NCBI GenBank assembly: GCA_018266355.1
Contig: JAFEAP010000029.1
Span: 14,305 to 78,304 of the forward strand
Length of the DNA: 64,000 nt
Direction of reading: 5' to 3'
DNA from: Bdellovibrionales bacterium
GTDB lineage: Bacteria; Bdellovibrionota; UBA1018
Shown here: one piece after another, positions 36,793-57,900 of the stretch
Layout of the letters: every line of letters begins with the position of its first letter
Position numbering within the stretch: the first letter of the stretch is position 1
The notes under the pieces: generated by a model
Seen by the model: the letters and a program-made list of their open reading frames with translations, nothing else
The model's database searches: none
Told to the model about the DNA's origin: nothing
Made by a program: the position numbers and the translations under genes

Positions 36793-37113
36793 TCACTCTT
36801 TCAGCAGGCGGATCTCGTCGGTGTCGACGGTTTTGAGCGTACGGAACATCGCGATCAAAAGACCGAGGCCTACGGCGCTTTCCGCCGCGGCGACCACGAT
36901 GATGAAGAAGACGGCCATCTGGCCGCCCATGTCCGCGTGTTGGCGCGAGAAGGCGACGAACGAAAGATTTACCGCGTTCAGCATGATTTCGACGCTCATC
37001 AGGATGACGAGGATGTTTCGACGCATCATCACGCCGGCGAGGCCGATGAAGAAGATGATCGCGCAGAAGGACTGGACCAGCCAAGGCTCGACGCCGGGAT
37101 TGATCTCGTTCAT
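36793..37113 (-). CDS. nuoK: NADH-quinone oxidoreductase subunit K
   Basis: 106 aa from MNEINPG..., with three TM helices; GGAAGG RBS upstream. The ORF-track N-terminal extension to 37332 was rejected. Confidence 0.85.
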   Translation of the reverse strand: MNEINPGVEPWLVQSFCAIIFFIGLAGVMMRRNILVILMSVEIMLNAVNLSFVAFSRQHADMGGQMAVFFIIVVAAAESAVGLGLLIAMFRTLKTVDTDEIRLLKE

Positions 37114-37661: not shown

Positions 37662-38101
37662 TTGTGCCCCCGTTGCTCGAGGAGGTAGTCCTTATCGTAG
37701 ACCTTCCGGGTCGAAAGGCTCATCTCGTAGATCTTCGAGAGCTTGATCGCGTCTTTCGGGCAAGCCTCTTCGCACATGCCGCAGAAGCAGCAGCGAAGCA
37801 CGTCGATGTCGAACTTCACCGGGTACTTTTCCTTATCCGGGCGTTCGCCAGCTTCGATGTGGATGCACTCGGCCGGGCAAACCGTCGGGCAGAGCATGCA
37901 CGCCGTGCAGTTTTCGACGCCGTTCGTGGCCTTGATATAGTGCATGCCGCGGTAGCGGTCCGAATAGTTCCGGCGTTCTTCCGGGTACTGGATGGTCACG
38001 TGCCGGACGAAGAGCATGTTCTTCATCGTGATCCAAAGACCCTTCAACACCTCTAAGATGTAGAGGTTTTGGAGGGCGGTAGTGTCGCGTTTAACGAGCA
38101 T
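37658..38101 (-). CDS. nuoI: NADH-quinone oxidoreductase subunit I (2x[4Fe-4S] ferredoxin)
   Basis: Two CxxCxxCxxxCP motifs (CTACMLCPTVCP; CCFCGMCEEACP); 147 aa. Confidence 0.9.
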   Translation of the reverse strand: MLVKRDTTALQNLYILEVLKGLWITMKNMLFVRHVTIQYPEERRNYSDRYRGMHYIKATNGVENCTACMLCPTVCPAECIHIEAGERPDKEKYPVKFDIDVLRCCFCGMCEEACPKDAIKLSKIYEMSLSTRKVYDKDYLLEQRGHK

Positions 38102-38139
38102 CGGTTACTCCGTAAAGAACCCAGGGTTCTTAAGTTAGA

Positions 38140-40659: not shown

Positions 40660-40667
<8 letters not shown>
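39255..40667 (-). CDS. nuoG: NADH-quinone oxidoreductase subunit G, short form (~470 aa)
   Basis: N-terminal 2Fe-2S motif (CYHP...C..C.VEV), His/Cys 4Fe-4S ligands (HPLDCPICDKAGEC; CIHCTRCIRF), then a partial molybdopterin-like domain. Start ATG 40667 (MPKCTIDGREV) is preceded by a GAGGTGAG RBS. Confidence 0.8.
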
Positions 40668-41940
<1,273 letters not shown>

Positions 41941-41941
41941 A

Positions 41942-42424
41942 TCAGCCTTTCACTCCGAGCTTCGCGAGCACCTCATCCATTTTGCGAATATCGAGGTTCT
42001 CCACGTAATCATTATTCAGCATCATCGCCGGGGCCGTGCCGCAAGCGCCGAGGCACTCTTCTTCGTGCAGGGTGAACTGTTTGTCCGGCGTCGTTTGTCC
42101 GACCTTGATCCCGAGTTTTTTCTCGGTGTGCTCTACGACGTCGTACGCGCCGCGGAGGCAGCACGCGACGTTCGTGCAGATCTTCAGGTGGTATTTCCCG
42201 ACCGGCTTCAGGTTGTACATCGTGTAGAACGACGCGACTTCCTTCACCTGCGCGGGGTGGATCCCGATGTACGAGCCGATTTCTTCCATCGTCTCCGAGG
42301 AGAGCCAGCCGAGTTCGTCCTGGGCCGCGTGGAGCGCGGGCAAAAGGAGCGCGACCTTCGTCGGATAGCGCGGCTCGAGCTTTTTCATCTCGGCGTAGAA
42401 TTTTTCGGAAAGGACTTTAGCCAT
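41942..42424 (-). CDS. nuoE: NADH-quinone oxidoreductase subunit E (2Fe-2S)
   Basis: 160 aa from MAKVLSEKFY..., with CTNVACCLRG...CLGACGTAP thioredoxin-like 2Fe-2S motifs. The 559-aa ORF-track entry is a spurious upstream extension. Confidence 0.85.
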   Translation of the reverse strand: MAKVLSEKFYAEMKKLEPRYPTKVALLLPALHAAQDELGWLSSETMEEIGSYIGIHPAQVKEVASFYTMYNLKPVGKYHLKICTNVACCLRGAYDVVEHTEKKLGIKVGQTTPDKQFTLHEEECLGACGTAPAMMLNNDYVENLDIRKMDEVLAKLGVKG

Positions 42425-42450
42425 GTCTCTTGAACCTCTGCTTATCTTCT

Positions 42451-43722
42451 TTACCGATCGAGCTCGCCGGCGATGATGTTGATCGACCCGAGCGCGGCGA
42501 CCATGTCCGCGATCAGTCCGCCTTGCGACATCGGCGAAAGCGCCTGGAAGTGGTAAACCGACGGTCCGCGGATACGCATACGGTGGGCTTTCGGCCCCCC
42601 CTTCGAGCAGATGTAGAATCCGAGCTCGCCGTTCGCCGCTTCGACCGTCGTGTAGGCCTCCCCTTCGGGAACGTCGAAGCCGGTCATGAAGAACTTGAAG
42701 TGGTGGATGAGGCCTTCCATCGTGTTGTGCACGACTTCCTTGTCCGGGATTCGCGTGCGCTTGTCGTCGGCCCAGACCGGACCCGGCTTCATGCGTTCGG
42801 CGCACTGCTGGATGATATTCAGCGACTGACGGATTTCTTCCATCCGCACGAGGTAACGATCGAACACGTCGCCGTTCTGGGCGATCGGCACGTCGAACTC
42901 GACCTTGTCGTAAACCAGGTAAGGCGCGTCCCGGCGGAGATCGATGTCGATCCCGGCGGCGCGCGCGCACGGTCCGGTGAAGGAATACTTCAGGCAGTCT
43001 TCCTTGCTGAATCGAGCGACGCCGACGGTCCGCTGGAGCCAGATCTTGTTCCCGGTGAGGAGGCTGTCCATTTCGTCGAGGCATTCGCGGGTTTTCTTCA
43101 CCCACGCCTTCACTTCGTCTTCCCAGCCGACCGGAGCGTCGCCGGCGAGCCCGCCGATCCGGGTGTAGGACGTCGTGAGGCGGGCACCGCAGAGTTTTTC
43201 GATGAGCGTGTAGGCTTCTTCGCGTTGGTGGAATCCGTAGAGGAAGAACGAGAACGCACCGATGTCGACGGCGCCGATTCCGACGCAGACGAGGTGGTCG
43301 ATCACGCGGGCCATTTCCGAGGCGATCATCCGGATCCAAACGCAGCGCTCGGGCACCGAGACGCCGAGCAGGCGCTCGACCGACATCGCGTAGGCGACGT
43401 TGTTGATGAGCGCCGAACAGTAGTTCAAACGATCCGAGTAGACGATGAACTGGTGATAGGTGCGATTTTCGCCGAGTTTTTCCTTCGCGCGGTGGGTGAA
43501 TCCGAATTCGCAGTAGCTCTGCTCGATCGTTTCGCCGTTCACTTTCGCGACCATGCGAAGCGCTCCGTGCATCGCGGGGTGGGTCGGGCCGATGTTCACG
43601 ACGACGCGGGAGTCGCCCCAAATATCGTCCGGATCGTGATCGATCGAATGGAAGTGGTGCGGGCCCTGACCCTGGGCGGAGTAGGTGCCGCTCGTAAACG
43701 GCGTTTCGTTACGGGTTTCCAT
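42451..43722 (-). CDS. nuoD: NADH-quinone oxidoreductase subunit D (49 kDa)
   Basis: 423 aa; motifs GPTHPAMHGALR...; separate from nuoC. Confidence 0.9.
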   Translation of the reverse strand: METRNETPFTSGTYSAQGQGPHHFHSIDHDPDDIWGDSRVVVNIGPTHPAMHGALRMVAKVNGETIEQSYCEFGFTHRAKEKLGENRTYHQFIVYSDRLNYCSALINNVAYAMSVERLLGVSVPERCVWIRMIASEMARVIDHLVCVGIGAVDIGAFSFFLYGFHQREEAYTLIEKLCGARLTTSYTRIGGLAGDAPVGWEDEVKAWVKKTRECLDEMDSLLTGNKIWLQRTVGVARFSKEDCLKYSFTGPCARAAGIDIDLRRDAPYLVYDKVEFDVPIAQNGDVFDRYLVRMEEIRQSLNIIQQCAERMKPGPVWADDKRTRIPDKEVVHNTMEGLIHHFKFFMTGFDVPEGEAYTTVEAANGELGFYICSKGGPKAHRMRIRGPSVYHFQALSPMSQGGLIADMVAALGSINIIAGELDR

Positions 43723-44300
43723 CAGCGGTCTCCCTTTTCGAGATACTCGGGCTTCGGCGCCGGCGTGTCCGGGAAGATTTGGTAGCCGCGGAGCGGATAG
43801 TCCTTACGAAGCGGATGACCGACCCATCGCTCGTCCATCAGGATCCGGCGCGGATGCGGGTGCCCGGTGAACGTGATGCCGAACATGTCGTAGACTTCGC
43901 GCTCCGGCCAGTTCGCCGCTTCCCAAAGCTTCGTCGCGGTCGGGATCTCTTCGCCGTCTTTCAGCCGGACCTTCACGCGGATGCGCGCCATGTTCGTGTG
44001 GGAAAGGAGTTGGTAGACGACTTCGAACCGAGGATCGATTTCTTCGTCGGTCGCCGTGAGATCGGCGAGGAATCCGTATTCGAGGCCCGGCGCCCCGCGG
44101 AGATAGTCGAGTACCGCGATGATCGATTCCTTCTTCACGTAGAGGATCGGCACTTCGGTCGGAAACTCCCGCGGCATCCGGACTTCTTCGATCGCGCCGC
44201 CGAACTTCGCTTGGACCTCGGCGACCTGTTTCTTCCAGGTATCGATGTATTTATCGTAATTTCCGCCGTAAATCGTGGCGACCGGGGTATTGATGTCCAT
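43722..44300 (-). CDS. nuoC: NADH-quinone oxidoreductase subunit C (30 kDa)
   Basis: 192 aa from [13 protein letters not shown]...; the ORF-track extension to 44597 was rejected. Confidence 0.85.
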   Translation of the reverse strand: MDINTPVATIYGGNYDKYIDTWKKQVAEVQAKFGGAIEEVRMPREFPTEVPILYVKKESIIAVLDYLRGAPGLEYGFLADLTATDEEIDPRFEVVYQLLSHTNMARIRVKVRLKDGEEIPTATKLWEAANWPEREVYDMFGITFTGHPHPRRILMDERWVGHPLRKDYPLRGYQIFPDTPAPKPEYLEKGDR

Positions 44301-44875
44301 TACTCGATTCCCTTCTCGACCTTTTCGCCGAGGCGGCGGATCTCGCGCGAATCCGTCGTCGCGATCCGGTTCATCAGGTTCAGCCGCTTCCACGCCTGCT
44401 CGCGCCGCTGGGCGCGCGTGTTGCCTTCTTGGATCATCTCCTGGAGGCGCATCACTCCGTGCATGAGTCCTTCCGGCGACGGCGGACAGCCCGGAACGTA
44501 CACGTCGACCGGGATGATCGTGTCGATGCCTTGGGTGACGGAATAGACGTTGAAGATCCCGCCCGAGGAAGCGCACGCGCCCATCGAGATGACCCACTTC
44601 GGTTCGGCCATCTGCTCGTAGATCGTCCGCAGGATCGGCGCCATCTTCGTGTTCACGATGCCGGCGACGATCATCATGTCGGCCTGTTTCGGCGAAAAGC
44701 GCATCGCTTCCGCGCCGAACCGGGCCATGTCGTAATCCGACGCGAGCGTCGCCATCATCTCGATCCCGCAGCAGCTCGTGCCGAACGGATAAGGCCAGAG
44801 CGAATTCTTCCGGCCGTAATTGATGACGTCGTCGAGGCGCGTGGTGAAATATACTGCCGAGCCGTCTTTACCCAT
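44300..44875 (-). CDS. nuoB: NADH-quinone oxidoreductase subunit B (N2 4Fe-4S)
   Basis: [19 protein letters not shown] and VPGCPP cluster-ligand motifs; 191 aa. Confidence 0.9.
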
Positions 44876-44878
44876 TGT

Positions 44879-45238
44879 CTACTCCCACTCGAGGGCACCC
44901 TTCTTGAGGATGTAGAAATATCCGACGAGCAGAATGCCGACGAAGAATCCCATCTCAAGCAGGATGAAAGAATTGATGCTGAGGTATTCGCGATAGATCA
45001 GCGCGAACGGAAAAAAGAAAATCGCTTCGACGTCGAAAAGGAGGAAGAGAATCGCGACGAGATAGAAGCGCACCGAGAAGCGGTGTTTTGTATCTCCTAA
45101 GGGAGGGACGCCGCATTCGAACGGAGCGTCCTTGATCACGTTTTTAATCTTCGGTCCGAGCAGGCTCGAAAGCCCGATCATACCGCCGCCGATCGCGAGC
45201 CCTACGGCGAGCAGAATCAGAACGGGTAGGTATTGCAT
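44879..45238 (-). CDS. nuoA: NADH-quinone oxidoreductase subunit A
   Basis: 119 aa, three TM helices, ND3 motif (PFECGVPP); first gene of the operon. Confidence 0.85.
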   Translation of the reverse strand: MQYLPVLILLAVGLAIGGGMIGLSSLLGPKIKNVIKDAPFECGVPPLGDTKHRFSVRFYLVAILFLLFDVEAIFFFPFALIYREYLSINSFILLEMGFFVGILLVGYFYILKKGALEWE

Positions 45239-45326
45239 GCGCGTATTCCCCCACGCGATGAAGACTTCGCGCCGAGTTTTTCGGCGTAAGTCTTAGGTTT
45301 GTAAGTCGAATTTAGAATTCGACCAA

Positions 45327-45355
45327 ACTATAGCTTCGGGCTAACGCGGGTTCAA
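45327..45355 (-). promoter_or_regulatory. Near-consensus sigma70-type promoter for the canonical nuoA-N operon, lying between the two nuo clusters
   Basis: On the minus strand: TTGAAC (plus 45350-45355), a 17-nt spacer, then TATAGT (plus 45327-45332), ~85 nt upstream of the nuoA ATG. The AT-rich 5'UTR contains a 7-bp palindrome GTCGAAT...ATTCGAC (45303-45323). Confidence 0.45.
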
Positions 45356-46813
45356 TCACCAAAGGTTAAACGCGACGCTTGCGCCGACCCAGTTCAGCAT
45401 CGGTTCTGCAAAAATCGAGAGCATCGCGAGCGGGAGTAAAAGTCCCAAGACGAGCATTCGGTGCGACCACGAGATCGCGAAACTCTCATTTCGATGACGC
45501 AGTTCGCTGATCCAAGGGTAGATCCACCGGAAGACCGCGATCGACATCAATATAAGAGAGAGAAGAGCGATCGAAACGAGTCCATTCCACTGATGCCGCG
45601 CCGCAGAGCTAATCAGCGTGAACTTCGCGATAAAACCGGGAAGTGGGGGAAGCCCGATGACCGCGACGAGGAACATCAATAACGCGACGCCTTCAGGAAC
45701 GGAGCGGGAAAGCTGTCCTCGGTTGGCTTCTTCGTCGCGTCGATCTTCGAAGAACGCGAGCGAAGAAAAGAGACCACCGACGACCACGACCTCCGTCGCG
45801 AGCCCGAAGAGGATCGAGGCGAACCCGACCTGATCGAGGGATAGGACGCCGAGGAGGTAAAATCCGCTTTGGAGTACGATCACTCCGGCGAGGAGCTTCC
45901 GCGTGTCGGTTTGGCGGAACGTGTAGAGCGCGCTCATGATGAGGGTCACGCCGGCGATCGTCGCGATCACCGGCGTCCACCCGATCGCGGTGATCGGCTG
46001 CCAAAACCCCTTGTCTCCGGACTCCTTCGCGAACTGGATCACGAGCGTCCGCACGAGCACGCCGAAACTCGAAATCCGGAAAAGGCAGGACGCGAATGCG
46101 GTCGCCGGAAGCGACGCTCCCTCGTAGGCGTCTTTCGCCCAGAGCTGGGCTGGGAAGTAAGTGCCGAAAAAACCGAGCGCGAGCACGATCATGGAGAAAC
46201 CGGTGGAAAACACCCGGTCCGGAATCCCCTTATCGACGATCGCGGCGTGGATCCGGTAAAGGTCGAACTCCCCGGTGATTCCGTAGAAAAGGAGCGAGGC
46301 GAGCGCGAGGAGGAGCGTCGCGTAGATCGCGAGGAAGTTCCCTTTGAACGCCGCTTCGATCGCTCGGCGGTCGAATTTTTTCAGCGCGAACGAGAGCGAG
46401 CCGAGAACCTGGACGCCGAAGAGCAGGACGAGGATCCAAACCCAGTGCACCGCCGATACGACGAGCATCGCGAGCGCCGTCGTCCCGAGGATGAGGGTCG
46501 CGTGCTCCGTCCGCGTTTCGAGCGAAACTTCCTGGGATTTACGTTCGGCGAAAAGCCCGATCCCCGCCGAGAGAAGGAGAAGGAGTTTCAGGAACAATCC
46601 GAAACCGTCGTTCACGAAATTCCCGTGTCCGTACCGACTCGCGCCGGCCGTGTAATTCAAGAGCAGCTGAATTCCCGACCCGCCCACCGCGAGAAGCGCG
46701 GTGGAAAGGATCATCCTCACGCGCTCCCCGTGATAGCCTACCTCGCCTAGGATCAATCCGATCGCGGCGAGGATCAGGTAAAGCTCGGGGAGAAATAGGA
46801 CGAAATCCTTCAC
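45356..46813 (-). CDS. Complex I-like antiporter subunit, NuoN/ND2 homologue (second cluster)
   Basis: 485 aa, ~14 TM helices, ND2/ND4/ND5-family architecture. GTG start overlaps the stop of the upstream M-like gene. Confidence 0.75.
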   Translation of the reverse strand: MKDFVLFLPELYLILAAIGLILGEVGYHGERVRMILSTALLAVGGSGIQLLLNYTAGASRYGHGNFVNDGFGLFLKLLLLLSAGIGLFAERKSQEVSLETRTEHATLILGTTALAMLVVSAVHWVWILVLLFGVQVLGSLSFALKKFDRRAIEAAFKGNFLAIYATLLLALASLLFYGITGEFDLYRIHAAIVDKGIPDRVFSTGFSMIVLALGFFGTYFPAQLWAKDAYEGASLPATAFASCLFRISSFGVLVRTLVIQFAKESGDKGFWQPITAIGWTPVIATIAGVTLIMSALYTFRQTDTRKLLAGVIVLQSGFYLLGVLSLDQVGFASILFGLATEVVVVGGLFSSLAFFEDRRDEEANRGQLSRSVPEGVALLMFLVAVIGLPPLPGFIAKFTLISSAARHQWNGLVSIALLSLILMSIAVFRWIYPWISELRHRNESFAISWSHRMLVLGLLLPLAMLSIFAEPMLNWVGASVAFNLW

Positions 46814-48267
46814 GCGAGCACCTTCGTGATCGTCGCCCGTACGATTTCGACGAACGGGGAGGGGAAGAACCCGACGCAGATCGCGACTCCGGCGAGGGGG
46901 ATCAAGAGGAGCCGTTCGCGGAAACCGAGACGGGTGAACCGCTCTTGGACCTTTTCACCGAGGAAGATCCGTCGATAGACTTGGATGAGGAATCCGGTTA
47001 CCACGAGCGAAACGACGAGGGCCGCGAGCACCACGCCCGGATGATAGTTGAAGGCGCCCATATAAAGGAGCGCGAAGGAGATGAATCCCGCCGTTCCCGG
47101 GATCCCGACCGCGCACGCGATCGAGAGCAGCGTCGCCGATCCGAGGTCGGGAAGGGTGCGGAGGACCCCTTGGATCTCCGCGATCGCGTACGTCCGCGTC
47201 CGGTAACGGAGGATTTCCGAGGCGAAGCCCCAAACCGCGAGCGCGACCATCGAGGAAAAGAGGATGAATTGCGAACCGACGAGACCCGTCGGATGCGCGG
47301 TTCCGATTCCGAGGAGCGAAAAGCCCGCGAAAACCGAGGAGAGCGAAACAAGGATGCCGCGCAGGTCGCTCTCTTGGAGGAGGGTCAAGGCCCCGAAAAC
47401 GAGGTTCGCGATCCCGATCCCGATCCACACGTCGAGGTGCGCCTTCATCGTCTCCGGAAAGAGCACGAAACCGATGCGGGTGAAGACGGTGAGAGCGACC
47501 GGAAAACCCGCGAGGAGGGCTCCGACGGCCACGGTCGTCGGGACCTTCAGGATGAATTTTCTAAACCACCCCTGGAGCGGCCAGAACGGCGCGCGAAGCG
47601 CTAGGCCGAATACGATGAGAGGAAAGGCGATGTGTTGGAGTTCGACCGAGATTCCGAAAATCTCGGTCGTTTTTCCCGCGAGCTTCCCCGCGAGGTCCTC
47701 GATCAGGAACGTGTGCGGATCGACGGCGTGATAAATGAGCAGGATCCCGAAGAAAAGACAGGCGCTCGCGACGAGCGAGACCGAGACCATTCGGAACGCG
47801 GAAGTCTCACGGCCCTCGTCGCCCCATATCGACGCGAGGAAATAGAGCGGGATCGGCGTCAGCATCAAGAAGAAGAGAAGCAGAAACAAGTCTCCCGCGC
47901 AAAGCGCGCCGAGGATTCCCGTTTCGAGCAGGAGGAGGAGCGCGTGGATCCCGCGTCGGCCGAACTGCCGGTCCCACTCCGAGATGAGAAGGAACGGGAA
48001 CACGAACGCGGTCACGAGCATCGGCAGGAGATTCAGTCCGTCCACGCCGAGCGCGAAGTGGATCGAATAGGAGCGCATCCAAGCCACGACGTACTTAGGT
48101 GTCTCGAGTCCCGGATCCATCTGGACGAAAAGAGCGATCGCGGCTACCGCGCTCACGAGACTCGCGACGATCGCCAGCGTGCGACTGATCGCCGGGCGCG
48201 GATTCAACGTCTGAAGAAGCGCCCCGAGGGCCGGCGTGAATACGAGAATCGGGATGAGTTCTTTCAA
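46810..48267 (-). CDS. Complex I-like antiporter subunit, NuoM/ND4 homologue (second cluster)
   Basis: 485 aa, polytopic. TTG start preceded by an AAGGAG RBS with a 6-nt spacer. Confidence 0.75.
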   Translation of the reverse strand: MKELIPILVFTPALGALLQTLNPRPAISRTLAIVASLVSAVAAIALFVQMDPGLETPKYVVAWMRSYSIHFALGVDGLNLLPMLVTAFVFPFLLISEWDRQFGRRGIHALLLLLETGILGALCAGDLFLLLFFLMLTPIPLYFLASIWGDEGRETSAFRMVSVSLVASACLFFGILLIYHAVDPHTFLIEDLAGKLAGKTTEIFGISVELQHIAFPLIVFGLALRAPFWPLQGWFRKFILKVPTTVAVGALLAGFPVALTVFTRIGFVLFPETMKAHLDVWIGIGIANLVFGALTLLQESDLRGILVSLSSVFAGFSLLGIGTAHPTGLVGSQFILFSSMVALAVWGFASEILRYRTRTYAIAEIQGVLRTLPDLGSATLLSIACAVGIPGTAGFISFALLYMGAFNYHPGVVLAALVVSLVVTGFLIQVYRRIFLGEKVQERFTRLGFRERLLLIPLAGVAICVGFFPSPFVEIVRATITKVLA

Positions 48268-48277
48268 AGACGTCTCC

Positions 48278-50152
48278 TTAACGAGTCAAATAAATCGAAA
48301 AAATCAGGATCCATATCAACGCGAACCACGCGTAGAGCCGTACGTTCCCGCCGTGCAACCACTGCACGAGCTTTGCCGCCGGCGTGAAGATGCGGCCGTA
48401 ACCTTCCGAGGTGAGCGGATCGACCGCGGCTTCCACGAAACGCGCGATCTTGCGAAGCGCGCCGAGCGTCGCGAGGCCCACCGCCGGAATTCCGCGTTCC
48501 CAGAATGTCGCCGAGACGCTCTCCGTCCAGTACGCTCCCATACGCCGGAACGCGCCGGAAAACCCCTCCTGGATCCAGCCGAGGCCGAAGAGTCCCTTCG
48601 CCGCGCGTTCTCCCCCCGGATATTTCTTCGAGAACGGAAAAAGTTCCGAGGAGCGCCACGCGAAGATCCCGAAAAGCGCGGCGACCAAGACGAGTCCCTG
48701 GGAGAGGCCGAAACCCGCCCAATCCGTCTCGGATCCTTCCGTCGCGGCCTTGATCCACGGCCACGCTTTCGCTCCCTCGATCCAGTCGGGCTCTCCCGGG
48801 AGCGCTCCACCACCGAAACGTCCCGACATTAGGGGTCCGAATCCGAGGACGAAGAAAATCCCGAGAGCCGCCCATTTCGCCGCCGGCGCCGGATTTTCCT
48901 TCCGATCCCCGCCGCGAACGACGAGGCGCCATCCGAACGCTTGATAGAGCAGGAGCAGGAGGAAAATCGGAATTCGCAGCGCGGGATCCGATTCCAACCG
49001 GGAAAAGAAGTTCGCGTACCCGGCCGACGTCGCCCATCCCACGAATCCGGTCGCGCCGAGATAGAAGGCCGCGGCCGTCGCGACGTCCGCCTTCGTGCGC
49101 GGATGATCGATCGCGACCCAAAGCCCGTTCGTCGCTACGAGCGCGCCGAGCAGGAGAAGGTTCGCCTCCCGCGCGGGAAGGAAAGGAAGCAGGACGAGCG
49201 TCGCGACGGGCGCCGTCGCGAGCCAGAGGTGGATCGCACTCGTGCGCGAAGACTGGAAGGTGAGCGCGGCGATCGAAAACGCGGTCGAAACCGCCGCCCC
49301 GACTCCGACGGACAGCAGCCACACTTCCTCGTGAAGGTTTCCGAACGCCCGGTAAAAGATCAATACCGCGATCCATCCGAGGCTCGTCTCGGAAACGAAA
49401 AGATTTTCCTCCACGGTCCGATCGTTCGATTCGTGAAGCGCGCTCGACGAAAGCGCCGGCGTCGCGATCACGAGAAGCCCGAAGACGAGGAGGGCTCCGG
49501 CCACGATCGCGGAGGGCGTCGCCTCGAGCGAAGACCACGGAGTCGAGGCGAGAAAGTCGAGGTGAATACCTTGGGACGCGAGTCCGGCGCCGCCGCAAAG
49601 GAGACTCGCGAGCCCGATCCAAGCGCGCTTCGCAGAAGCGATCCAACGCGCGTCCACTCCCGCGGTTCTTTCCGCGCTCTCGGTCAACGGAAAAGTCCGG
49701 GAAAGAATCTGGATCCCGATCCCGAGGATCGCCATCCAAATCGTCTGCGCGGTCGCGGCGAGTCCGAGGCCGACCCAGGAAAGGACGAGCGCCGAACTCG
49801 TCCGGATCGTCGGACGGTTCCGGATCGCGATCGCCACGGCGGCCGCCCCCGCGAAAAACACGGCGACGAAACTCACCGGGTCGAAAACGAGGCCGAGATG
49901 AAGCGCGTCCTGGGCGCCCTTGTCGAAAACCCAGTGCACGATCGGACGCTCGAGGACGCCGAAACCGCGCGCGGCGTACACGAGGGCGAAAAGCATTCCG
50001 GGAAACGCGAAAATCGCGAACGCGCTCGTCCGGATTTTTTCGAGGCGTTCCGGGAAAAGGCCGGCAATCGCCGCGGTCACGATCGCGAACGAAAGGGCGG
50101 CGATCCAAACGACCAGGAGACTCGAGGGTGAGGAGAGGAGTTCGGCGTCCAT
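48278..50152 (-). CDS. Complex I-like antiporter subunit, highly diverged NuoL/ND5-like (second cluster)
   Basis: 624 aa, Ala/Leu/Gly-rich polytopic membrane protein in the L position between the K-like and M-like genes. Assignment rests mainly on length, position and TM pattern. Confidence 0.6.
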   Translation of the reverse strand: MDAELLSSPSSLLVVWIAALSFAIVTAAIAGLFPERLEKIRTSAFAIFAFPGMLFALVYAARGFGVLERPIVHWVFDKGAQDALHLGLVFDPVSFVAVFFAGAAAVAIAIRNRPTIRTSSALVLSWVGLGLAATAQTIWMAILGIGIQILSRTFPLTESAERTAGVDARWIASAKRAWIGLASLLCGGAGLASQGIHLDFLASTPWSSLEATPSAIVAGALLVFGLLVIATPALSSSALHESNDRTVEENLFVSETSLGWIAVLIFYRAFGNLHEEVWLLSVGVGAAVSTAFSIAALTFQSSRTSAIHLWLATAPVATLVLLPFLPAREANLLLLGALVATNGLWVAIDHPRTKADVATAAAFYLGATGFVGWATSAGYANFFSRLESDPALRIPIFLLLLLYQAFGWRLVVRGGDRKENPAPAAKWAALGIFFVLGFGPLMSGRFGGGALPGEPDWIEGAKAWPWIKAATEGSETDWAGFGLSQGLVLVAALFGIFAWRSSELFPFSKKYPGGERAAKGLFGLGWIQEGFSGAFRRMGAYWTESVSATFWERGIPAVGLATLGALRKIARFVEAAVDPLTSEGYGRIFTPAAKLVQWLHGGNVRLYAWFALIWILIFSIYLTR

Positions 50153-50153
50153 A

Positions 50154-50453
50154 TCAGTGACGGATCTCCTCGTTCCGGCGCCACCGGACGTCGCGGTCGG
50201 AATAATACCTTCGTAGCCCGAGGACGAGCAGCGACGCGAGGGCGATCGCCGCGCCGAAGACGAGCACCCAAAGCAAGACCGCGCCTTCCGCGGGTTTTGC
50301 CCTCTGGAAGACGCTGATCGCGGCGAGCGCGAGCACTCCCTGCCAGGCGACGAGGAACGCGACCGTTCCTCCGATCACGCTCTTACGCATGTGAAGGCCG
50401 GTCCACCCGATCACAAGGAGAGGGAGTGCGTAGGCGACGTGAATACCGGTCAT
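50154..50453 (-). CDS. NuoK-like subunit (second cluster)
   Basis: 99 aa from MTGIHVAYALPLLVIGW..., with three TM helices. The ORF-track N-terminal extension was rejected. Confidence 0.7.
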   Translation of the reverse strand: MTGIHVAYALPLLVIGWTGLHMRKSVIGGTVAFLVAWQGVLALAAISVFQRAKPAEGAVLLWVLVFGAAIALASLLVLGLRRYYSDRDVRWRRNEEIRH

Positions 50454-50959
50454 CTCGACCTCTCCGAATTCCGCTTCCAGCCCGGGCGGCCGACGGTGGC
50501 CCAAGTCACGATCGCGAGGAAAAGCGTGACCCCCATCACCCACGGCAGCTCCGGGAACGCCGCGAGCATTTCCTTCGCGAACTCCGGCGCCGCGAGATCT
50601 CCCCGGGTCTCCGCTTCCGGAAACGTGCTCACGAGCGCGAAGACGAGGATCGCTCCGATCGTCGTACCCGAGCCGATGCCGTAGATCCAATCCTGGCGTT
50701 CGCGCTCCGATTCGGCGCGATGGATCGCACCCGTTCCGAAAACCGCGGAATAGAGCTGTAAGACGGTCGCGCTCGCGGCGACGAACAAAAGATTCAAGAG
50801 CGCGAGGAGCTCGAAACCGATCACGAGGAAAAAGAGCGACTGAAAGAGTCCGACGCCGAGCCAGCCGAGAACGAGCCTTTTCGTCGTCCTGGTGAAGAGC
50901 GTTCCGGCGGCGAGCGCGGTCGAAGCGCCGAGGAGCGCGACGAGGAGAATCGGCTTCAC
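50450..50959 (-). CDS. NuoJ-like subunit (second cluster)
   Basis: 169 aa from GTG (VKPILLVALLG...), preceded by a GGAGAGGAG RBS; polytopic, in the J position. Confidence 0.65.
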   Translation of the reverse strand: MKPILLVALLGASTALAAGTLFTRTTKRLVLGWLGVGLFQSLFFLVIGFELLALLNLLFVAASATVLQLYSAVFGTGAIHRAESERERQDWIYGIGSGTTIGAILVFALVSTFPEAETRGDLAAPEFAKEMLAAFPELPWVMGVTLFLAIVTWATVGRPGWKRNSERSR

Positions 50960-51450
50960 GGGTAATCTCCTCTCCGGGGCGCTTCCCCTTTTCCGAACGA
51001 CTCGACCATTTTTTTCCGGTCGGTCGCGGCGTACTCGTAGCGCTTCGAGTGGGTCAGGGAGTTCGTCGGACAAACATCCACGCAAAGCCCGCACATCAAG
51101 CAGCGCGAGTGATCGATATCGAAGAGAGAAACCCATTCTTTCTGGGTTTCCTCGAGGCGTTCGCTGTCGATCGTGAAGCAGTCGACGGGACAGGCCTTCG
51201 CGCATTCGCGGCATCCGATGCATTGTTCGATCGCGTTGTGCACGAGTCCACGCGTGCGCGGAGGAAGATCGTCCGTCGTCCGCGAGGAAACCGGATCGGG
51301 ATATTGCTCCGTGACTTCCTTCCGAAGCGTGTTCGGGTTCGCGTTGAACAGGTAAGGAAGCGAAGCCGATAGCGCGCGGACGAGCGACTGGGTCCCGTCG
51401 ATCAGGATCGAAAACCCGCGAGCGACCGTGCCGATGATGCTCGCCCTCAT
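50956..51450 (-). CDS. NuoI-like 2x[4Fe-4S] ferredoxin subunit (second cluster)
   Basis: 164 aa with CIGCRECAKACP and CLMCGLCVDVCP. Confidence 0.8.
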   Translation of the reverse strand: MRASIIGTVARGFSILIDGTQSLVRALSASLPYLFNANPNTLRKEVTEQYPDPVSSRTTDDLPPRTRGLVHNAIEQCIGCRECAKACPVDCFTIDSERLEETQKEWVSLFDIDHSRCLMCGLCVDVCPTNSLTHSKRYEYAATDRKKMVESFGKGEAPRRGDYP

Positions 51451-52478
51451 CCGGCACCTCCCGAGAAAAGGCGGATCCACACGAGTTCCCCGACCAGGCA
51501 CAGCGCCGCGACCGGCGTGAGCACTCGCCAGCAGAACTCCGTCATCTGGTCCTGACGAAGCTGCGGGAGAGCGCGCGCCACCACGCGCAGCGCGAGGAAG
51601 AGAACGGCCGCTTTCGCGAGCGCCGTCACGAGTTGATAAAACGCGAAGAAAAACGAAACGTCGCCCGCTTCGGGAATCGACTGGCCGCCGAGGAAGAGCG
51701 CGGAGGCGAGGAGACACCAGACGAGCGTCGCGTAGAACTGGTTCAATCCGAAGAGACCGAGACGAACGCCCGCTCGGTTCCGAACGCCGCGGTCGAGCGA
51801 GTGGAAGGGAGGGAGCTGGAGCGCGACGAGTCCCGAAAGAAGGAAGACGAAGAACGCGACGAAACCGAAGGGACTCGAGAACGCGGTCCAGTGGAAGAGT
51901 CCGTGCGCCTGACTCGTGAGAAGCGTGCTCCACCGCGCGCTGCCCGCGCGCGCGACGGCGACGGTCGCGCCGAGGAGCGCCGGGACCCACGCCGAGATCC
52001 AAAGGAACGACTGCCGATGCGCGAGAATCTCGTTCTCGAGCTCGGCCGCGCCCTCGGTCGCGAAGAGCGAACAGAGAAAGACGCCGGCCATGCACACGAA
52101 CGGAAGGAACGCCCCCATTTCGCTGTCGAGGAGGATCAGCGTGCTTCCGAACGGGACGAAAACAAAGGACGAGAAAAGGATCGCGTTCTGGATCCCGAAC
52201 CACTTCGGGTCGAGGCTCGCGTGTCCGCGAACCGCGCTTTTCGCGCCGAGCTTCAGCGTATCGGCCACGACCTGGAAGAGCCCGCCTCCCGGAGTGCGAT
52301 TCGGGCCGACGCGGGCCTGGAGATCGGCCGCGAGTTTCCGCTCCGCGAACCCGAGCGCGAAGTAGAGCGGAAAAAGCACGAATAGGAAGAACGCGACGAA
52401 CGCGACCGGCGCCGCGATGAACGCCGAAGCCCCTTCGCCGAGCCCGAAAAGCGCGTTCCATCCCGCCGAAGAGGTCAT
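51447..52478 (-). CDS. NuoH/ND1-like subunit (second cluster)
   Basis: 343 aa from MTSSAGWNALFG...; ND1-like motif LQARVGPNRTPGGGLFQVVADTLKL; polytopic. Confidence 0.75.
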   Translation of the reverse strand: MTSSAGWNALFGLGEGASAFIAAPVAFVAFFLFVLFPLYFALGFAERKLAADLQARVGPNRTPGGGLFQVVADTLKLGAKSAVRGHASLDPKWFGIQNAILFSSFVFVPFGSTLILLDSEMGAFLPFVCMAGVFLCSLFATEGAAELENEILAHRQSFLWISAWVPALLGATVAVARAGSARWSTLLTSQAHGLFHWTAFSSPFGFVAFFVFLLSGLVALQLPPFHSLDRGVRNRAGVRLGLFGLNQFYATLVWCLLASALFLGGQSIPEAGDVSFFFAFYQLVTALAKAAVLFLALRVVARALPQLRQDQMTEFCWRVLTPVAALCLVGELVWIRLFSGGAG

Positions 52479-52498
52479 GAGGTTCAGCTCTTCCCCGC

Positions 52499-53653
52499 TC
52501 ACCGATCGACCTCCGAAAGGGAAAGGTCGAGGCTCGCGAGGATGACCGGAACGTCTTGGAGGGTCACGCCCGCGAGGAGGTCCGGCGCGGCTTCGATGTT
52601 CGACTGGCTCGGCGTGCGCCACTGCACGCGCGTCGGGTGAAATCCCCCGTCCGAAACGACGTGACACGCGAGGAGGCCTCGCGGGGACTCGACGCGCGCG
52701 TAGGCTTCTCCCGCCGGAACCGTGAAGTCCGGCATCATGCGGAAGGCGAGGAAATCTCCCGGAGGAACCGCGTCCACCGCGTGCGAAAGGAGAAGGAGGC
52801 TCTCTCGGATCTCCTCGAGACGAACCATCACGCGGTCGAAACCGTCGCCGATCGTTCCGCGCAGCCCGGTGCCGATCGGCACCCGGAAATCGAATTGTTC
52901 GTACGCGCTATAGGGCTCGACCTTTCTGACGTCGAACCGGTTTCCGCTCGCGCGGGCGCTCGGTCCGGTGATCGCCTTGATCTGGATCAATTCGGGGGAA
53001 ATCACCCCCTGCCACGCGAGGCGATCGACGAACGCGCGATTCTCGATCATGAGCGCGTGGTACTCGCGCAAACGGATCTCGATCAACCGCGTGGTTTCGT
53101 GGATCCGTTCGATGAATCCCTCGGTGATGTCCGCGGCGACGCCGCCGAGGCGGAAGAACCCGAGATTGAACCGGCGGCCGGTCATGAGTTCGAGGAGGTC
53201 GAGGACGAGCTCGCGCTCGCGCAAGATGTAGTGGGAGACGGTTTCGAAACCCGTGACGATCGCGAGGCGCGCGAGAAACCCGAGGTGCGAGCCGATGCGA
53301 TCGAGCTCGGCGAGGATCAGGCGGATCGTCTGGGCTCGGCGCGGAACCTGGATGTTGCAGATTTCTTCGACCGCCATCGCGAACGCGAGCTCGGCGGCGA
53401 GCGAAGATTCCGAATCGACGCGATCGACGGGCACGATCGAGGTGAACCAGTTCCGCTTTTCCGCGCTCTTTTCTAGGCCTTTATGGAGGTATCCCGTCTC
53501 GAACCGCGCCCGACGGACGAGGTCTCCCTCGGCTTCCATGTCGATGCGGAAAATTCCGGGCAGCGTCGGATCGCTCGGGCCCCAGGAAAGTTTCGAAACC
53601 GAGGTGTGGAGTTTTTCCGGCGAAAAGATCACGGCGCGATCTCCTCCCGCCAT
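52499..53653 (-). CDS. NuoD-like (49 kDa / [NiFe]-hydrogenase large-subunit-like) subunit (second cluster)
   Basis: 384 aa from MAGGDRAVIF..., preceded by a GGGAGGAG RBS; NuoD-like regions (RIDMEAEGDLV...ETGYLHKGLEK; RVESPRGLL). Confidence 0.75.
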   Translation of the reverse strand: MAGGDRAVIFSPEKLHTSVSKLSWGPSDPTLPGIFRIDMEAEGDLVRRARFETGYLHKGLEKSAEKRNWFTSIVPVDRVDSESSLAAELAFAMAVEEICNIQVPRRAQTIRLILAELDRIGSHLGFLARLAIVTGFETVSHYILRERELVLDLLELMTGRRFNLGFFRLGGVAADITEGFIERIHETTRLIEIRLREYHALMIENRAFVDRLAWQGVISPELIQIKAITGPSARASGNRFDVRKVEPYSAYEQFDFRVPIGTGLRGTIGDGFDRVMVRLEEIRESLLLLSHAVDAVPPGDFLAFRMMPDFTVPAGEAYARVESPRGLLACHVVSDGGFHPTRVQWRTPSQSNIEAAPDLLAGVTLQDVPVILASLDLSLSEVDR

Positions 53654-54099
53654 TCGAACGTCTTTCGGAGCGGGAAGCCCCCGTACGAGCCGAAATTTTT
53701 CCTGACCGCGCCGGCGCCCCGGCTCCCGGTGAACTCGATACCGAAAAGCGGAGCGAGTTCCGTCTCGAACGCTTCCGCGTGCGGCCAGATTCCGACGGCC
53801 GAGGGGACGCTCGCGAGCTCCTGCGCTCCCGGGACGGGCGTGCTCGTGCGCAGAACGAGTTGGTGATTCTGGGAGTGCGAGCGGAGGAAGTAGCTCAAAA
53901 CGAGCTTGTTCTTCGCCTCGTAAACGGTGAACGCTTCCAGAAAGTCGAACCGGAAATTTTCTTCCATGCGCAGCCACGCCGCGATTTCGTGCGCCGACGC
54001 GAACTCCGCCTCGACGACGAACTTTTCGGAACGCCCGAAGTTCCTGATTTGGACCGCGGCTCCGAACGCCGCTTCGATCCGGTTAAGCAGGGGTCGCAC
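53629..54099 (-). CDS. NuoC-like (30 kDa) subunit (second cluster)
   Basis: 156 aa; sits between the B-like and D-like genes; E.ELAPLFGIEF..G resembles the NuoC C-terminal region. Confidence 0.65.
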   Translation of the reverse strand: MRPLLNRIEAAFGAAVQIRNFGRSEKFVVEAEFASAHEIAAWLRMEENFRFDFLEAFTVYEAKNKLVLSYFLRSHSQNHQLVLRTSTPVPGAQELASVPSAVGIWPHAEAFETELAPLFGIEFTGSRGAGAVRKNFGSYGGFPLRKTFEWREEIAP

Positions 54100-54535
54100 G
54101 GATTTTCTCCTGCAATCGGATGAGCCCGTTCATGATCGCCTCGGGCCGCGGCGGACAGCCGGGAACGAAGACGTCGACGGGAATGACTTTATCGAGGGGT
54201 TTCGCTCCGGCGTAGGAGACGTTCGCGTCGAACGCTCCGCCCGAGTTCGCGCACGCGCCGACCGCCATCACGTACTTCGGGAAAGGCATGCGCTCGTAGA
54301 TCTCGCGGATCGTCCCTTCGAGACGATCGGTGACGGCGGTGCTCACGATCAAGAGATCGGCTTGTTCCGGATGGGCCTGAGGAAGGCATCCGAACCGCTC
54401 GAGGTCGTATCGGCAGCCTTGGAGCGAGAGCATTTCGTTCGCGCAGCATCCGCCCGCGATCGTGTAGGTCCAAAGCGACGCCGACTGGGCCCAGTTCACC
54501 ACGTCGTTCAGTTTCGTCGAGACGTAGGCGCTCAT
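54083..54535 (-). CDS. NuoB-like N2-cluster subunit (second cluster)
   Basis: 150 aa from MSAYVSTKLNDVVNW..., with GGCCANEM, GACANSGG and VPGCPP (all four N2 Cys ligands retained). Confidence 0.8.
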   Translation of the reverse strand: MSAYVSTKLNDVVNWAQSASLWTYTIAGGCCANEMLSLQGCRYDLERFGCLPQAHPEQADLLIVSTAVTDRLEGTIREIYERMPFPKYVMAVGACANSGGAFDANVSYAGAKPLDKVIPVDVFVPGCPPRPEAIMNGLIRLQEKIRATPA

Positions 54536-54936
54536 CCGATCCGTTCCTCTTCTCCATCCAAGCGCGATCGACGCGCGCCCCAGGAGAGGTCGCCCTTCCG
54601 CAAACAATAAAACAACGCGATCGCCATCGGCACGATGATCGCGACGAGGAGAAGGCTCGAAAGATCGCCGTCTTCTCCGCGCACGCTGTAAAGCAGCGGC
54701 AACCCGAGAAGCGCGAGGCCGAGAAATCCGAGAAAGAGCAGCGCCGCGAGGTGGAAGCGGACCGAGATCGGTTCGGCGGTCGGATTCGACGCGACGGGGG
54801 GCGGCACGGTCGCCGGTCCACGCTTCGAAATCCCGCCGAGCAGGCGCCAGACCCGCGGAAGTCCGAAGGGAATGAGCCAACCGAGAAGGGCGGTCAGAAT
54901 CACCAAAATATAGCTGGGCCAGCGGGTGGGCATCAT
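54532..54936 (-). CDS. NuoA/ND3-like subunit (second cluster)
   Basis: 134 aa from MMPTRWPSYILVILTALLGW..., with three predicted TM helices; first gene of the cluster. Confidence 0.65.
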   Translation of the reverse strand: MMPTRWPSYILVILTALLGWLIPFGLPRVWRLLGGISKRGPATVPPPVASNPTAEPISVRFHLAALLFLGFLGLALLGLPLLYSVRGEDGDLSSLLLVAIIVPMAIALFYCLRKGDLSWGARRSRLDGEEERIG

Positions 54937-54985: not shown

Positions 54986-57900
54986 GTGATAGCCTCGAGT
55001 TCCATCCTTTCGATCCTCCGTTCCAGTCGCGAACTCGACGAGTCCGTTCGAGTCACAGGGCTTTCGCGCGGCGCGCGAGCTCTCCTCCTCGCGCGGTGGG
55101 GAGCCGAGCGGGAGGGGGGCGCGCCGCTCCTGGTAGTTTGTCCGTCGAACGAACTCGCGACCGAGCTCGCCGAGGAGATCGAAACGCTTTCCGAAACCGT
55201 CCTCGGGCGAAACGTCCGCGCCGCCGCGTTTCCGGGTTGGGACCATTCTCCGTTTTCCTCGATCGCGCCTTCGATCGGCGTCCGTCTTGCGCGAATCGCG
55301 CTGCTGACCCGTCTCGCCAAGGGCGAGGACGTTCCCGACCTGGTGCTCACTTCCCTGCCGGCCGCGCTCCACCGGACGCTTCCGCTCGCGACGCTCGAAG
55401 CCCGTTCTTTCGTGCTTCGAAAAGGAGAAGGCGTCGAATCCCGCGACGTGCTCGCGCGGAACCTCGCGGAAGCGGGCTACCTGCGCGTCGATCCCGTCGA
55501 AGATCGCGGCACGTTCGCCGTCCGCGGCGATCTCGTCGACGTTTTCCCTCCGGAAGCCGCTCGTCCGTACCGCCTCGAGCTTTGGGGGGACGAGGTCGAG
55601 ACGATCCGTGAATTCGATCCGAAAACCCAGCGGACGCTTTCCGAACACTCGCACGCCCAGATCGCCTTCGGTCCCGCGCGCGAGGTCCTGATCAATTCCG
55701 AAACGGTCGCTTCCGTCCGCGAAGGACTCAAGGCCCGCGCCGACGACGCCGGTATTTCCCGCGCCCTTCGCGATCCGCTTTTGGAGCGCGTTCACGCGGG
55801 ATCGTATCCCGAATCGGCCGACTTCTGGTCCGCTTTCGCGTACCCCGGAAAGGCGAGAACGCTCTTCGAATTCCTGCCCTGGTCCCGGGTCGCCGTCATC
55901 GACGCCCTCGGCGCCGAACAGGGGTGGGACGCGTGGGTCGCCGACCAGCGCGAACGCGAAAAGGAAGCGCTCGAATCCGGCGTCGTGCTGCCGAAGATCG
56001 AAGAAGAATTCGACGTCCGTCCTTCGTCCCTCGAAAAACTGCCGATCGCGAAGCGCCTCTTTCTCGACGTCCTCGAACTCGCCGATCTCTCCGCCCGCCC
56101 GGAACTTCCCGAAGCGCCGGAAGACGGCTACACCGACGAATTTTCGTCCGAGATCGGAAAACCCTCGGACGAGCCGAAGGCGCGTCACCGGGCTTTCGTG
56201 AAGACGAACGCCGACCTCCACGACGGAAAGCCGCCTTCCCTCGCGACGCTCGAACCGAAGTTCGGGCTCTGGAGAAAACAGGGGTTCCGCACGCTCATCC
56301 TCGCTCCGACGCCGAGCCAGGTCGAACGACTCCGCTACCTTCTCGAAGAACGGAAAATTCCCGTCACCCTCGGGCCCGAAGGGAACGAGCTCGCCGAACC
56401 GAACGCGGGATCCGTCACCCTCCGCGAGGGTTCCGTGGCGGAGGGTTTCCGGTGGCCGGCGGAGGGGCTCGTCGTCCTCACCGACTCCGAAATCCTCGGC
56501 ACGAAATCGCGCCACCAATCCAAAAAACGCCGAAAACAAGACGAATCCGCGGCGAAAGAGTGGTCGAACCTCCAGGCCACGAGCGACCTCGCGGTCGGCG
56601 ACGCCGTCGTTCACATCGACCACGGCATCGGTCGATACCAAGGAATCGTGCGCCTCGACCTGAACGGCGCTTCGAACGACTTTCTTCTCCTCGAGTACGC
56701 GAACAAGGACAAGCTCTACCTTCCGATCTACCGATTGAACGTCATCCAGAAATACGCGGGTGGGTCGGGCGAGGGTGCCGCGCTCGACACGCTCGGAACG
56801 GGGCACTTCGCGAAAGCGAAGGAAAAGGCGAAGGAGTCCGTCCGCAAGATCGCCATCGACCTCGTGAAGCTCTACGCCGAGCGGAAGATCCGGCCCGGAC
56901 TTCGGTTCTCCCCGCGCGACGCGGAGATGAATCGCTTCGAGGCCTCGTTCCCTTTCGACGAGACGCCCGACCAGCTTCGCGCGATCGAGGCGACGTTCGA
57001 CGACATGGAAAGCGGTCGCGTGATGGATCGCCTCGTCTGCGGCGACGTCGGCTACGGGAAAACCGAAGTCGCGATCCGTGCGGCGTTCAAGGCCGTGTAC
57101 GACGGCTACCAAGTCGCGGTCCTCGTTCCCACGACGGTCCTCGCCCACCAGCACGAGCAAAGCTTCCGCGCCCGGTTCGGGAAGGACTATCCCGCGATCC
57201 GGCTCGAATCCGTTTCCCGCTTCAAATCCGCGAAAGAGCAGAAGGAAATCATCAAATCCGTCGAGTCGGGAGGCGTCGACATCATCATCGGCACGCATCG
57301 TCTCCTCTCGAAGGACGTTCGCTTCAAACGTCTCGGTCTTGTGATCATCGACGAAGAGCACCGCTTCGGCGTCGAGCACAAGGAGCGGCTCAAGACGTTC
57401 CGAACGAATACCCACGTCTTGACCCTCACCGCGACACCGATCCCTCGGACGCTCCACATGTCGCTCTCCGGCCTCCGCGACATCTCGCTGATCAACACCG
57501 CGCCGCTGAACCGCCTTCCGATCCGAACTTACGTCTCGAAGTTCGACGAAGACCTCATTCGGCGCACGATCGAGACCGAGCTTTCGCGCGGCGGCCAGGT
57601 CTTTTTCGTGCATAACCGCGTCGGTTCGATCTACTCCGTCGCGGAAAAGGTGAAGGAACTCGTCCCGCGCGCGCAGATCGGCGTCGGTCACGGCCAGATG
57701 GCCGAGGGCGAACTCGAGAAGGTGATGATGGACTTCTACGAGAAGAAGACGAACGTCCTCGTCGCGACGACCATCATCGAGTCCGGCATCGACATCCCCT
57801 CGGCGAACACGATCCTGATCGACCGCGCGGACGCGTTCGGCCTCGCGCAGCTTTATCAGCTCCGCGGGCGCGTCGGCCGGGCCCAAACGCGGGCCTACGC

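Follow-up and report, generated by a model that had tools for sequence, protein, structure and literature searches.

Complex I-like enzymes of 11 subunits (NUO11), encoded in one operon without NuoE, NuoF and NuoG, are known in many bacteria, for example Chlorobi and Firmicutes such as Desulfitobacterium and Bacillus (PMC4758237, PMC3144371, PMC11238625), and are described as quinone-reactive and rotenone-sensitive. The ferredoxin:plastoquinone NDH-1 of cyanobacteria and chloroplasts also lacks the NADH-dehydrogenase module (N-module, NuoEFG), and the archaeal F420H2:methanophenazine enzyme Fpo shares the 11-subunit core. Few features of the superfamily of complex I, Mrp and membrane-bound hydrogenases are as well conserved as the quinone triad of NuoD and the chain of ionisable residues in the membrane arm, and all current coupling models rest on them (PMC10212512). 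Multiple or split nuo clusters have been noted in Bdellovibrio and like organisms (PMC13147790, PMC4758237). In this study, we analysed a 64,000-nucleotide stretch of the genome of a Bdellovibrionales bacterium (GCA_018266355.1, contig JAFEAP010000029.1, positions 14,305 to 78,304; hereafter the window), focusing on 11 minus-strand genes at 45356-54936 in the order A-B-C-D-H-I-J-K-L-M-N, whose products are called A2 to N2 and which lie directly upstream of a canonical 14-gene nuoA-N operon (31711-45238, minus strand). The genes look expressed and are maintained by selection, and they appear to encode a paralogue of respiratory complex I with 11 subunits, in which the residues of the quinone site and most of those of the pumping axis have been replaced and all Fe-S cluster ligands have been kept. 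We consider it probable that the complex is not a canonical energy-converting quinone reductase, yet is functional and selected as a non-pumping, redox-cofactor-bearing member of the superfamily.

His38, Tyr87 and Asp139 of NuoD (Thermus thermophilus numbering) are taken here to be the ligands and proton donors of the quinone headgroup. D2 (52499-53632, 377 amino acids, GTG start; Pfam Complex1_49kDa, E = 1.6e-68) was compared at these columns with other NuoD proteins by aligning the best 120 database hits to a T. thermophilus Nqo4 reference, and was found to carry Pro, Ser and Val. The triad is lacking in 56 of the 57 family NuoDs (P0001-P0057, some of which are N-terminally truncated and do not include the His38 column); the first position is Pro (rarely Ser, Gln or Phe), the second Ser or Pro, and the third Ala, Val, Ser and similar residues. 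Exceptions were P0051, with Ile, Tyr and Gln, and the deep-branching P0058, with His, Tyr and Arg. All 62 canonical NuoDs recovered in the same search read His/Tyr/Asp or His/Tyr/Glu, and this contrast between the family and the canonical proteins is independent of residue numbering. As a result, the inspection of the quinone-site His and Tyr that had been proposed in a preliminary description of this locus gave a negative answer for D2 and for nearly the whole family.

The replacements in D2 include conserved, family-specific ones, namely LPG in the beta1-beta2 loop and RxD(S/P)E instead of RxDY, and the protein ends in SLDLSLSEVDR. Since the pocket next to cluster N2 has switched substrate several times in the superfamily (PMC10212512), these motifs could reflect a different substrate, comparable to protons in Mbh or polysulfide in Mbs, with another coupling ion or none. 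We regard this as very unlikely, since D2 has only two Cys, neither of them at a NiFe ligand position, no new conserved metal-binding or redox residues are present, no accessory substrate-handling gene lies in or next to the cluster, and the pump residues, which Mbh and Mbs keep, are lost. Mrp, Mbh, Mbs and Ech share with the cluster the antiporter-like L, M and N subunits and a NuoB/NuoD/NuoI-like module, whereas the gene order and subunit set found here are those of complex I; all four keep the Lys/Glu axis (PMC10212512). The CxxC pairs of group 4 [NiFe] hydrogenases (RxCGxC and DPCxxC) are absent from D2, and hydrogenase models gave E values above 1e-4. D2 could be aligned over its full length with FpoD, yet the scores of the Fpo models of NCBIfam were far below their cutoffs (FpoD 282 against 600, FpoH 80 against 475 and FpoI 62 against 180), no FpoF- or FpoO-like gene was found in the cluster or its flanks, and Fpo is archaeal whereas the present host is a bacterium. 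An identity as hydrogenase or as Fpo was thus rejected on the missing NiFe Cys and the poor model scores.

The loss extends through the membrane arm. The residue classes concerned are those described as essential for coupling, and they form the core of current structural models (PMC10212512); the sites of the E-channel are numbered below as in Escherichia coli. Both conserved Glu of NuoK (E36 and E72) are non-acidic in all seven family members aligned, including K2 (50154-50453, 99 amino acids). In NuoA, FECG is absent and FDVE is changed to FLGL or FFGx in five of five close family members (A2, 54532-54936, 134 amino acids, ATG start). The acidic loop between transmembrane helices (TM) 5 and 6 of NuoH, AETNRxPFDxxEGESE...EY, reads ALQLPPFHSLDRG with two deletions in H2 (51447-52502, 351 amino acids, GTG start; Pfam NADHdh, E = 7e-33), and the Glu of the SYE motif has become Trp. 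The TM3 Tyr of NuoJ is replaced by Phe (J2, 50450-50959, 169 amino acids, GTG start).

The three antiporter-like subunits follow the same pattern. M2 (46810-48267, 485 amino acids, TTG start; NCBIfam NDH_I_M, E = 3.5e-65) has Met for GluTM5, Arg for LysTM7, Ala for LysTM8, Phe for the His of the SHMG motif and Phe for GluTM12, and the M subunits of the family show Met, Leu or Ala, then Arg, then Ala or Val, then Phe or another non-His residue, and Phe or His at these columns. In N2 (45356-46813, 485 amino acids, GTG start; Pfam Proton_antipo_M, E = 1.3e-28) GluTM5 and LysTM7 are both Gly, LysTM8 is Arg and the conserved His is Gln, the corresponding family residues being Gly/Gln, Gly/Val, Arg and Gln; LysTM12 is retained in N2. 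L2 (48278-50152, 624 amino acids) reads Gly, Ile and Ser at GluTM5, LysTM7 and HisTM8 (the TM12 position was not resolved in the alignment). Among 69 sequences of the L family, the five residues most often found at GluTM5 are Ala, Gly, Val, Ser and Leu; the LysTM7 column is Gln in 40 and mostly hydrophobic in the rest, the HisTM8 column is mostly Thr, Ala or Ser, and a Gln or Glu adjoins the latter in 54. This non-random pattern of Gln and Glu hints at a conserved polar, non-ionisable feature. The antiporter Lys and Glu residues, which the preliminary description had also singled out for inspection, are therefore mostly gone, and most central-axis residues of H, A, J, K, N, M and L have been replaced. 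L012, a related locus, has several of these residues at the same columns (in M, GluTM5, LysTM8 and the His; in N, GluTM5; in D, His38 and Tyr87), and the losses are therefore not alignment artefacts.

These results bear on the most conventional explanation, that the locus encodes a very diverged NUO11-type enzyme, i.e. an ion-pumping quinone reductase fed by ferredoxin, flavodoxin or F420. It shares with such enzymes, which occur in many bacteria, the subunit set and gene order in a single operon without NuoEFG, a short NuoD resembling the model PRK12322, intact N2, N6a and N6b ligands, the TM1-2 loop of NuoH and the lateral helix of NuoL, and it is under strong purifying selection; the relocated polar residues could in principle serve a different pathway. 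The triad is nevertheless missing from almost every family NuoD and present in every canonical one, the NuoK Glu pair, the NuoA acidic pair, the NuoH loop and GluTM5, LysTM7 and LysTM8 of L, M and N are mostly non-ionisable, and no characterised member of the superfamily lacks these residue classes (PMC10212512). The cluster also differs from NUO11 in standing always in tandem with a full nuo14 operon. We therefore judge a conventional NUO11 enzyme to be unlikely. The preliminary description had compared the locus to modules of the ferredoxin or F420 type; the absence of the N-module, the intact Fe-S ligands and the tandem arrangement agree with that comparison, and the quinone-reducing, ion-pumping function implied by it is unsupported.

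The redox cofactor ligands, by contrast with the coupling residues, have been kept. B2 (54083-54535, 150 amino acids; 182.6 bits with an NCBIfam NuoB subfamily model against a cutoff of 116) carries the four Cys of cluster N2 (CC, C, C), and I2 (50956-51450, 164 amino acids; NCBIfam NuoI, E = 1e-24) carries both CxxCxxCxxxCP motifs with their eight Cys. All 12 ligands of N2, N6a and N6b, which had been noted as intact from the window alone, recur without exception in the window and in five aligned relatives whose identity falls as low as 51-59%. The TM1-2 loop of the NuoH-like protein, ERK..Q.R.GPNR..Q..AD..KL, is retained as well, and in a 66-sequence alignment of the L family the TM3 Asp (D91) and R268, structural motifs of the antiporter fold, are near-invariant.

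The identity of most subunits is clear. B, C (C2, 53629-54099, 156 amino acids, GTG start; Pfam Complex1_30kDa, E = 2.8e-16), D, H, I, M and N have unambiguous Pfam and NCBIfam matches, and the best Protein Data Bank (PDB) matches are NuoM chains for M2 and NdhB and NuoN chains for N2. I2 has a conserved N-terminal extension of about 20-30 residues relative to canonical NuoI. D2 aligned in one stretch with PRK12322, a NuoD model of 366 amino acids; against long canonical NuoD models its alignment splits in two, as it lacks about 40 of their residues. A2, J2 and K2 gave only sub-threshold Pfam matches in the window (E values of 1e-3 to 1e-4; 3e-4 with Oxidored_q4 for A2 and 1.5e-4 with Oxidored_q3 for J2). 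Matches are on record for syntenic orthologues, to Oxidored_q4 for A in L012, to Oxidored_q3 for J in L003 and L012, and to Oxidored_q2 for K in L003, L012 and the P0021 locus, and the assignment of A and J rests mainly on these and on the sub-threshold hits. The K family profile aligned over its full length with canonical NuoK (hhalign 86%, E = 5e-6), and the J family profile with canonical NuoJ over its full length at a weak 19%.

L2 is extremely diverged and had been called barely recognisable. On its own it matched nothing in Pfam, NCBIfam or the PDB sequences, and a 13-sequence profile matched neither the PDB sequences nor, by hhalign, the canonical NuoL of the window. Profile searching enlarged the family to 73 representatives at 50% identity, none of the ten scanned containing Proton_antipo_M. 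A 66-sequence profile was then significant by hmmsearch against cyanobacterial NdhF (3e-13), chloroplast NdhF (3e-12) and, over almost its entire length, E. coli NuoL (2e-9), and insignificant by hhalign against a single canonical NuoL (probability 0.9%). The AlphaFold2 (AF2) model built from the 66-sequence alignment reached a mean predicted local distance difference test score (pLDDT) of 87.2 and a predicted template modelling score (pTM) of 0.85, compared with a pLDDT of 57.7 from 13 sequences, and contains at least 14 TM helices, a 76-residue helix (525-600) and a terminal TM helix (604-623). The top 50 Foldseek hits of this model in the PDB were all NuoL, ND5 or NdhF chains. A lateral helix with a C-terminal anchor helix is unique to NuoL. 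The homology is settled by the 66-sequence search together with the predicted fold, and L2 is, as modelled, a true NuoL with lateral helix 525-600 and anchor helix 604-623. With all 11 proteins falling within the complex I superfamily, as the proposed profile searches were meant to establish, the cluster is a complete complex I core minus the N-module. NDH-1 is comparable in this respect, and the best PDB sequence matches of L2 and N2 are NdhF and NdhB; NDH-1 differs in having the ferredoxin-binding NdhS, NdhV and NdhO, none of which was found in the cluster or its 10-kb flanks, and in its gene organisation.

Purifying selection acts on the cluster, with dN/dS of 0.04-0.19. The ratios were calculated by the Nei-Gojobori method against the closest relatives, L013 and L009, and are rough, dS being near saturation (1.2-2.4), so that they are if anything overestimates; for C2 no estimate was possible because dS was saturated. 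The values against L013 were 0.19 for A2, 0.09 for B2, 0.049 for D2, 0.13 for H2, 0.054 for I2, 0.18 for J2 and 0.10 for K2, with 0.06 for mfd as a control, and those against L009 were 0.044 for M2, 0.058 for N2 and 0.14 for the C-terminus of L2, with 0.05-0.08 for the canonical A, B, C, D and F. At the protein level the cluster evolves faster than the canonical operon, because identities to L005 are only 44% for L2 and 51-56% for A2, C2 and J2 against 76-89% for the canonical subunits. Such fast divergence of A, C, J and L, together with the lost functional residues, is what might be expected of a decaying relic, either a pseudogenised duplicate or a horizontally acquired nuo cluster. In all related loci, though, the reading frames are intact, without frameshifts or internal stops (the sign of pseudogenisation that had been named as speaking against a working module), and the start/stop overlaps are preserved; the family, moreover, comprises at least 57 NuoD clusters at 90% identity besides the 73 NuoL representatives. 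Pseudogene decay is contradicted by these selection and conservation data, and we consider a relic extremely unlikely.

A non-pumping paralogue that keeps its redox cofactors agrees best with this combination of losses and retentions. The complex would still assemble into the L-shaped architecture and bind the N6a-N6b-N2 chain, because the full subunit set is encoded, including a NuoL with its lateral helix. It would not reduce quinone in the canonical, proton-pumping way, because the NuoD triad and most ionisable residues of the E-channel and antiporter axis have been lost. NuoI would be the point of electron entry, the source being either a soluble carrier of low potential or the NuoEFG of the neighbour. 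Most likely the membrane complex works alongside the canonical complex I encoded immediately downstream, with which it may be co-transcribed.

Several points weigh against this reading. Polar residues remain in the membrane arm (Gln at LysTM7 and Gln or Glu beside HisTM8 in L, Arg at TM7 of M and TM8 of N, and LysTM12 in N), and a relocated polar pathway could in principle operate despite the loss of the canonical residues. In Yarrowia, partial complex I activity with short-chain quinones is reported to persist in some mutants of the Tyr and His. The conserved TM1-2 loop of NuoH, which lines the quinone cavity, suggests that a ligand cavity may persist. M2 and N2 are under selection as strong as that on canonical subunits, which would hardly be expected if they served as a purely passive anchor, and the roughness of the dN/dS estimates has to be borne in mind throughout.

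A further explanation is a catalytically dead 'pseudo-complex I', in which the Fe-S clusters serve only folding and assembly and the complex is a scaffold, an assembly platform or a regulator for canonical complex I, for instance when the membrane arms associate laterally or when it docks NuoEFG. The loss of catalytic residues with retention of structural motifs such as D91 and R268 of L fits this view, as do the invariable position directly upstream of the active paralogue with no terminator between them, the strong selection on the membrane subunits and the progressive degeneration along the family. It is less easily reconciled with the conservation of 12 of 12 cluster ligands over a divergence that lost the pump residues, which argues for a redox role; a physical association with canonical complex I is conjectural, and the separate, conserved promoter of the canonical operon shows that different expression of the two modules is possible. 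We regard a dead complex as doubtful. Within the non-pumping reading, electron transfer to some acceptor and a dead scaffold or regulator would both fit the present sequence data; the retained ligands and the cavity loop of NuoH lean towards a redox or ligand-binding role, and the pseudoenzyme-like pattern with its fixed tandem position leans towards partnership with the active paralogue. More speculatively, and as a tentative proposal, the locus could represent a conserved multi-subunit 'pseudoenzyme' with scaffold and Fe-S clusters and without quinone site or pumping axis, which a Bdellovibrionota lineage has kept because it partners with, regulates or organises canonical complex I, or else its remodelled pocket and Gln-lined axis could serve a new reaction.

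As to origin, the resident canonical NuoD shares 31% identity with D2 and NuoDs of other lineages share about 39-40%, and where BLASTP aligns the resident paralogues with the cluster, identities range from 19 to 44% (for J, K and L, BLASTP gave no alignment with the counterpart). A recent duplication of the resident nuo operon with loss of EFG was rejected, D2 being closer to foreign NuoDs and of the short type; the cluster appears to descend from an N-module-less lineage of the NUO11 type. The fold of all 11 common subunits is shared with the adjacent canonical complex I on the same strand, from which the cluster differs in lacking E, F and G and in the loss of catalytic and pump residues.

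The related loci come from metagenome-assembled genomes (MAGs) labelled Bacteriovoracaceae, Oligoflexia, Bdellovibrionia, Bdellovibrionota and Deltaproteobacteria, and others from metagenome assemblies; none of the family proteins examined was traced to an isolate, in a taxonomic survey that is thin, the 13-sequence L alignment having yielded six MAG loci. The window L2 recurs, at 100% identity, as a 'hypothetical protein' in a Bdellovibrionales MAG. In L001, the P0021 locus, L003, L004, L005, L006, L007, L008 and L012 the 11 genes are followed directly by canonical nuoA, and L009 contains the tail L-M-N and then canonical nuoA, so that the tandem is found in every related locus reaching the junction. 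Wherever the upstream side is annotated, mfd is the divergent neighbour. L012 (2412-12375) is a deep-branching, half-degenerate member of the tandem family whose L already lacks a Pfam match, and degeneration appears graded from L012 through L003 and L004 to the type of the window. A separate nuo-like arrangement, A-C-D-H-J-K-(64 amino acids)-L-M-N without NuoB or NuoI in the cluster, was observed on a 3.1-Mb metagenomic contig (L011:8933-18656); its NuoD is of the short type (386 amino acids) with the same deletion of about 40 amino acids as D2, yet keeps His38, Tyr87 and Asp139.

The spacer between N2 and canonical nuoA is 117 bp long. Right after the N2 stop codon it contains a candidate sigma-70-like promoter, TTGAAC-17-TATAGT (45327-45355, minus strand), which matches the consensus at 9 of 12 positions; 1.2 such sites are expected by chance in the 10.6-kb region. 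It had been described as strong; the match itself is no better than chance, and what supports the site is that hexamers and spacing are conserved in four diverged loci (L005, L006, L008 and L009), for which reason a dedicated promoter for canonical nuo is credible. No minus-strand terminator-like site was found in the spacer, and read-through from the 11-gene cluster into canonical nuo is therefore possible. Of the suggestion that the two modules are independently regulated, the conserved promoter supports one half and possible read-through qualifies the other. Just downstream of the -10 hexamer, in the 5' untranslated region of canonical nuoA (45240-45325, minus strand), GACTTAC stands twice, 14 nt apart, as a direct repeat that L005 and L006 share and L009 shares in part; a regulator of canonical nuo may use it as operator.

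N-module-less 11-subunit complexes are already known, and what appears new is a conserved tandem copy stripped of catalytic and coupling residues. No description of a tandem 11-gene paralogue with these residue losses was found in the literature searched, the coverage of which is incomplete, so that a prior description is possible. The locus amounts to a natural negative control, in which coupling residues are replaced in seven membrane subunits and NuoD while architecture, Fe-S ligands and selection persist, so that the requirements for building complex I can be told apart from those for running it. The graded intermediates (L012, then L003 and L004, then the window type) could reveal the order in which coupling elements were lost. 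The genes are annotated in databases as ordinary NADH-quinone oxidoreductase subunits, with L as a 'hypothetical protein', and metabolic reconstructions would consequently over-count energy-conserving complex I.

The gene calls at the locus were confirmed. The cluster runs from the A2 start at 54936 to the N2 stop at 45356, exactly as first described, and its ten junctions comprise seven overlaps of 4 nt, one overlap of 17 nt and gaps of 1 and 10 nt, a packing typical of operons with translational coupling. The cluster is also present on two public contigs (D protein 100% identical), for which independent gene calling yielded the same 11 products, of 134, 150, 156, 377, 351, 164, 169, 99, 624, 485 and 485 amino acids from A to N on both. 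The use of GTG (C2, D2, H2, J2 and N2) and TTG (M2) starts was also seen as reported. An open reading frame of 614 amino acids (48264-50108, minus strand, other frame) covers nearly all of L2; it was rejected as a gene, having no Pfam match and being occupied in the public calls by the 624-residue L, and looks like a shadow reading frame of GC-rich sequence.

Homologues of NuoE, NuoF or NuoG, separate or fused, are absent from 45356-54936; the sole copies in the window belong to the downstream canonical operon, a full set of 14 genes in which E, F and G were verified by Pfam. On the other side, mfd (54986-58600, opposite strand) diverges from A2 at a distance of 49 bp with no gene in between, in agreement with the absence of a donor-module gene that had been pointed out, and no extra gene that might encode such a module is present in any related locus. 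Canonical NuoG (39255-40676, minus strand) is unusually short (473 amino acids), with only a small piece of the C-terminal molybdopterin-like domain matching Pfam. Other genes of the window are of the housekeeping type, namely the dcw cell-wall cluster (91-10720), HtrA, ClpB and seryl-tRNA synthetase, and a tetratricopeptide repeat protein of 1045 amino acids lies just downstream of nuoN. A urate degradation locus at 19091-23659 (minus strand) encodes a membrane PuuD-type urate oxidase, an amidohydrolase and an OHCU decarboxylase fusion.

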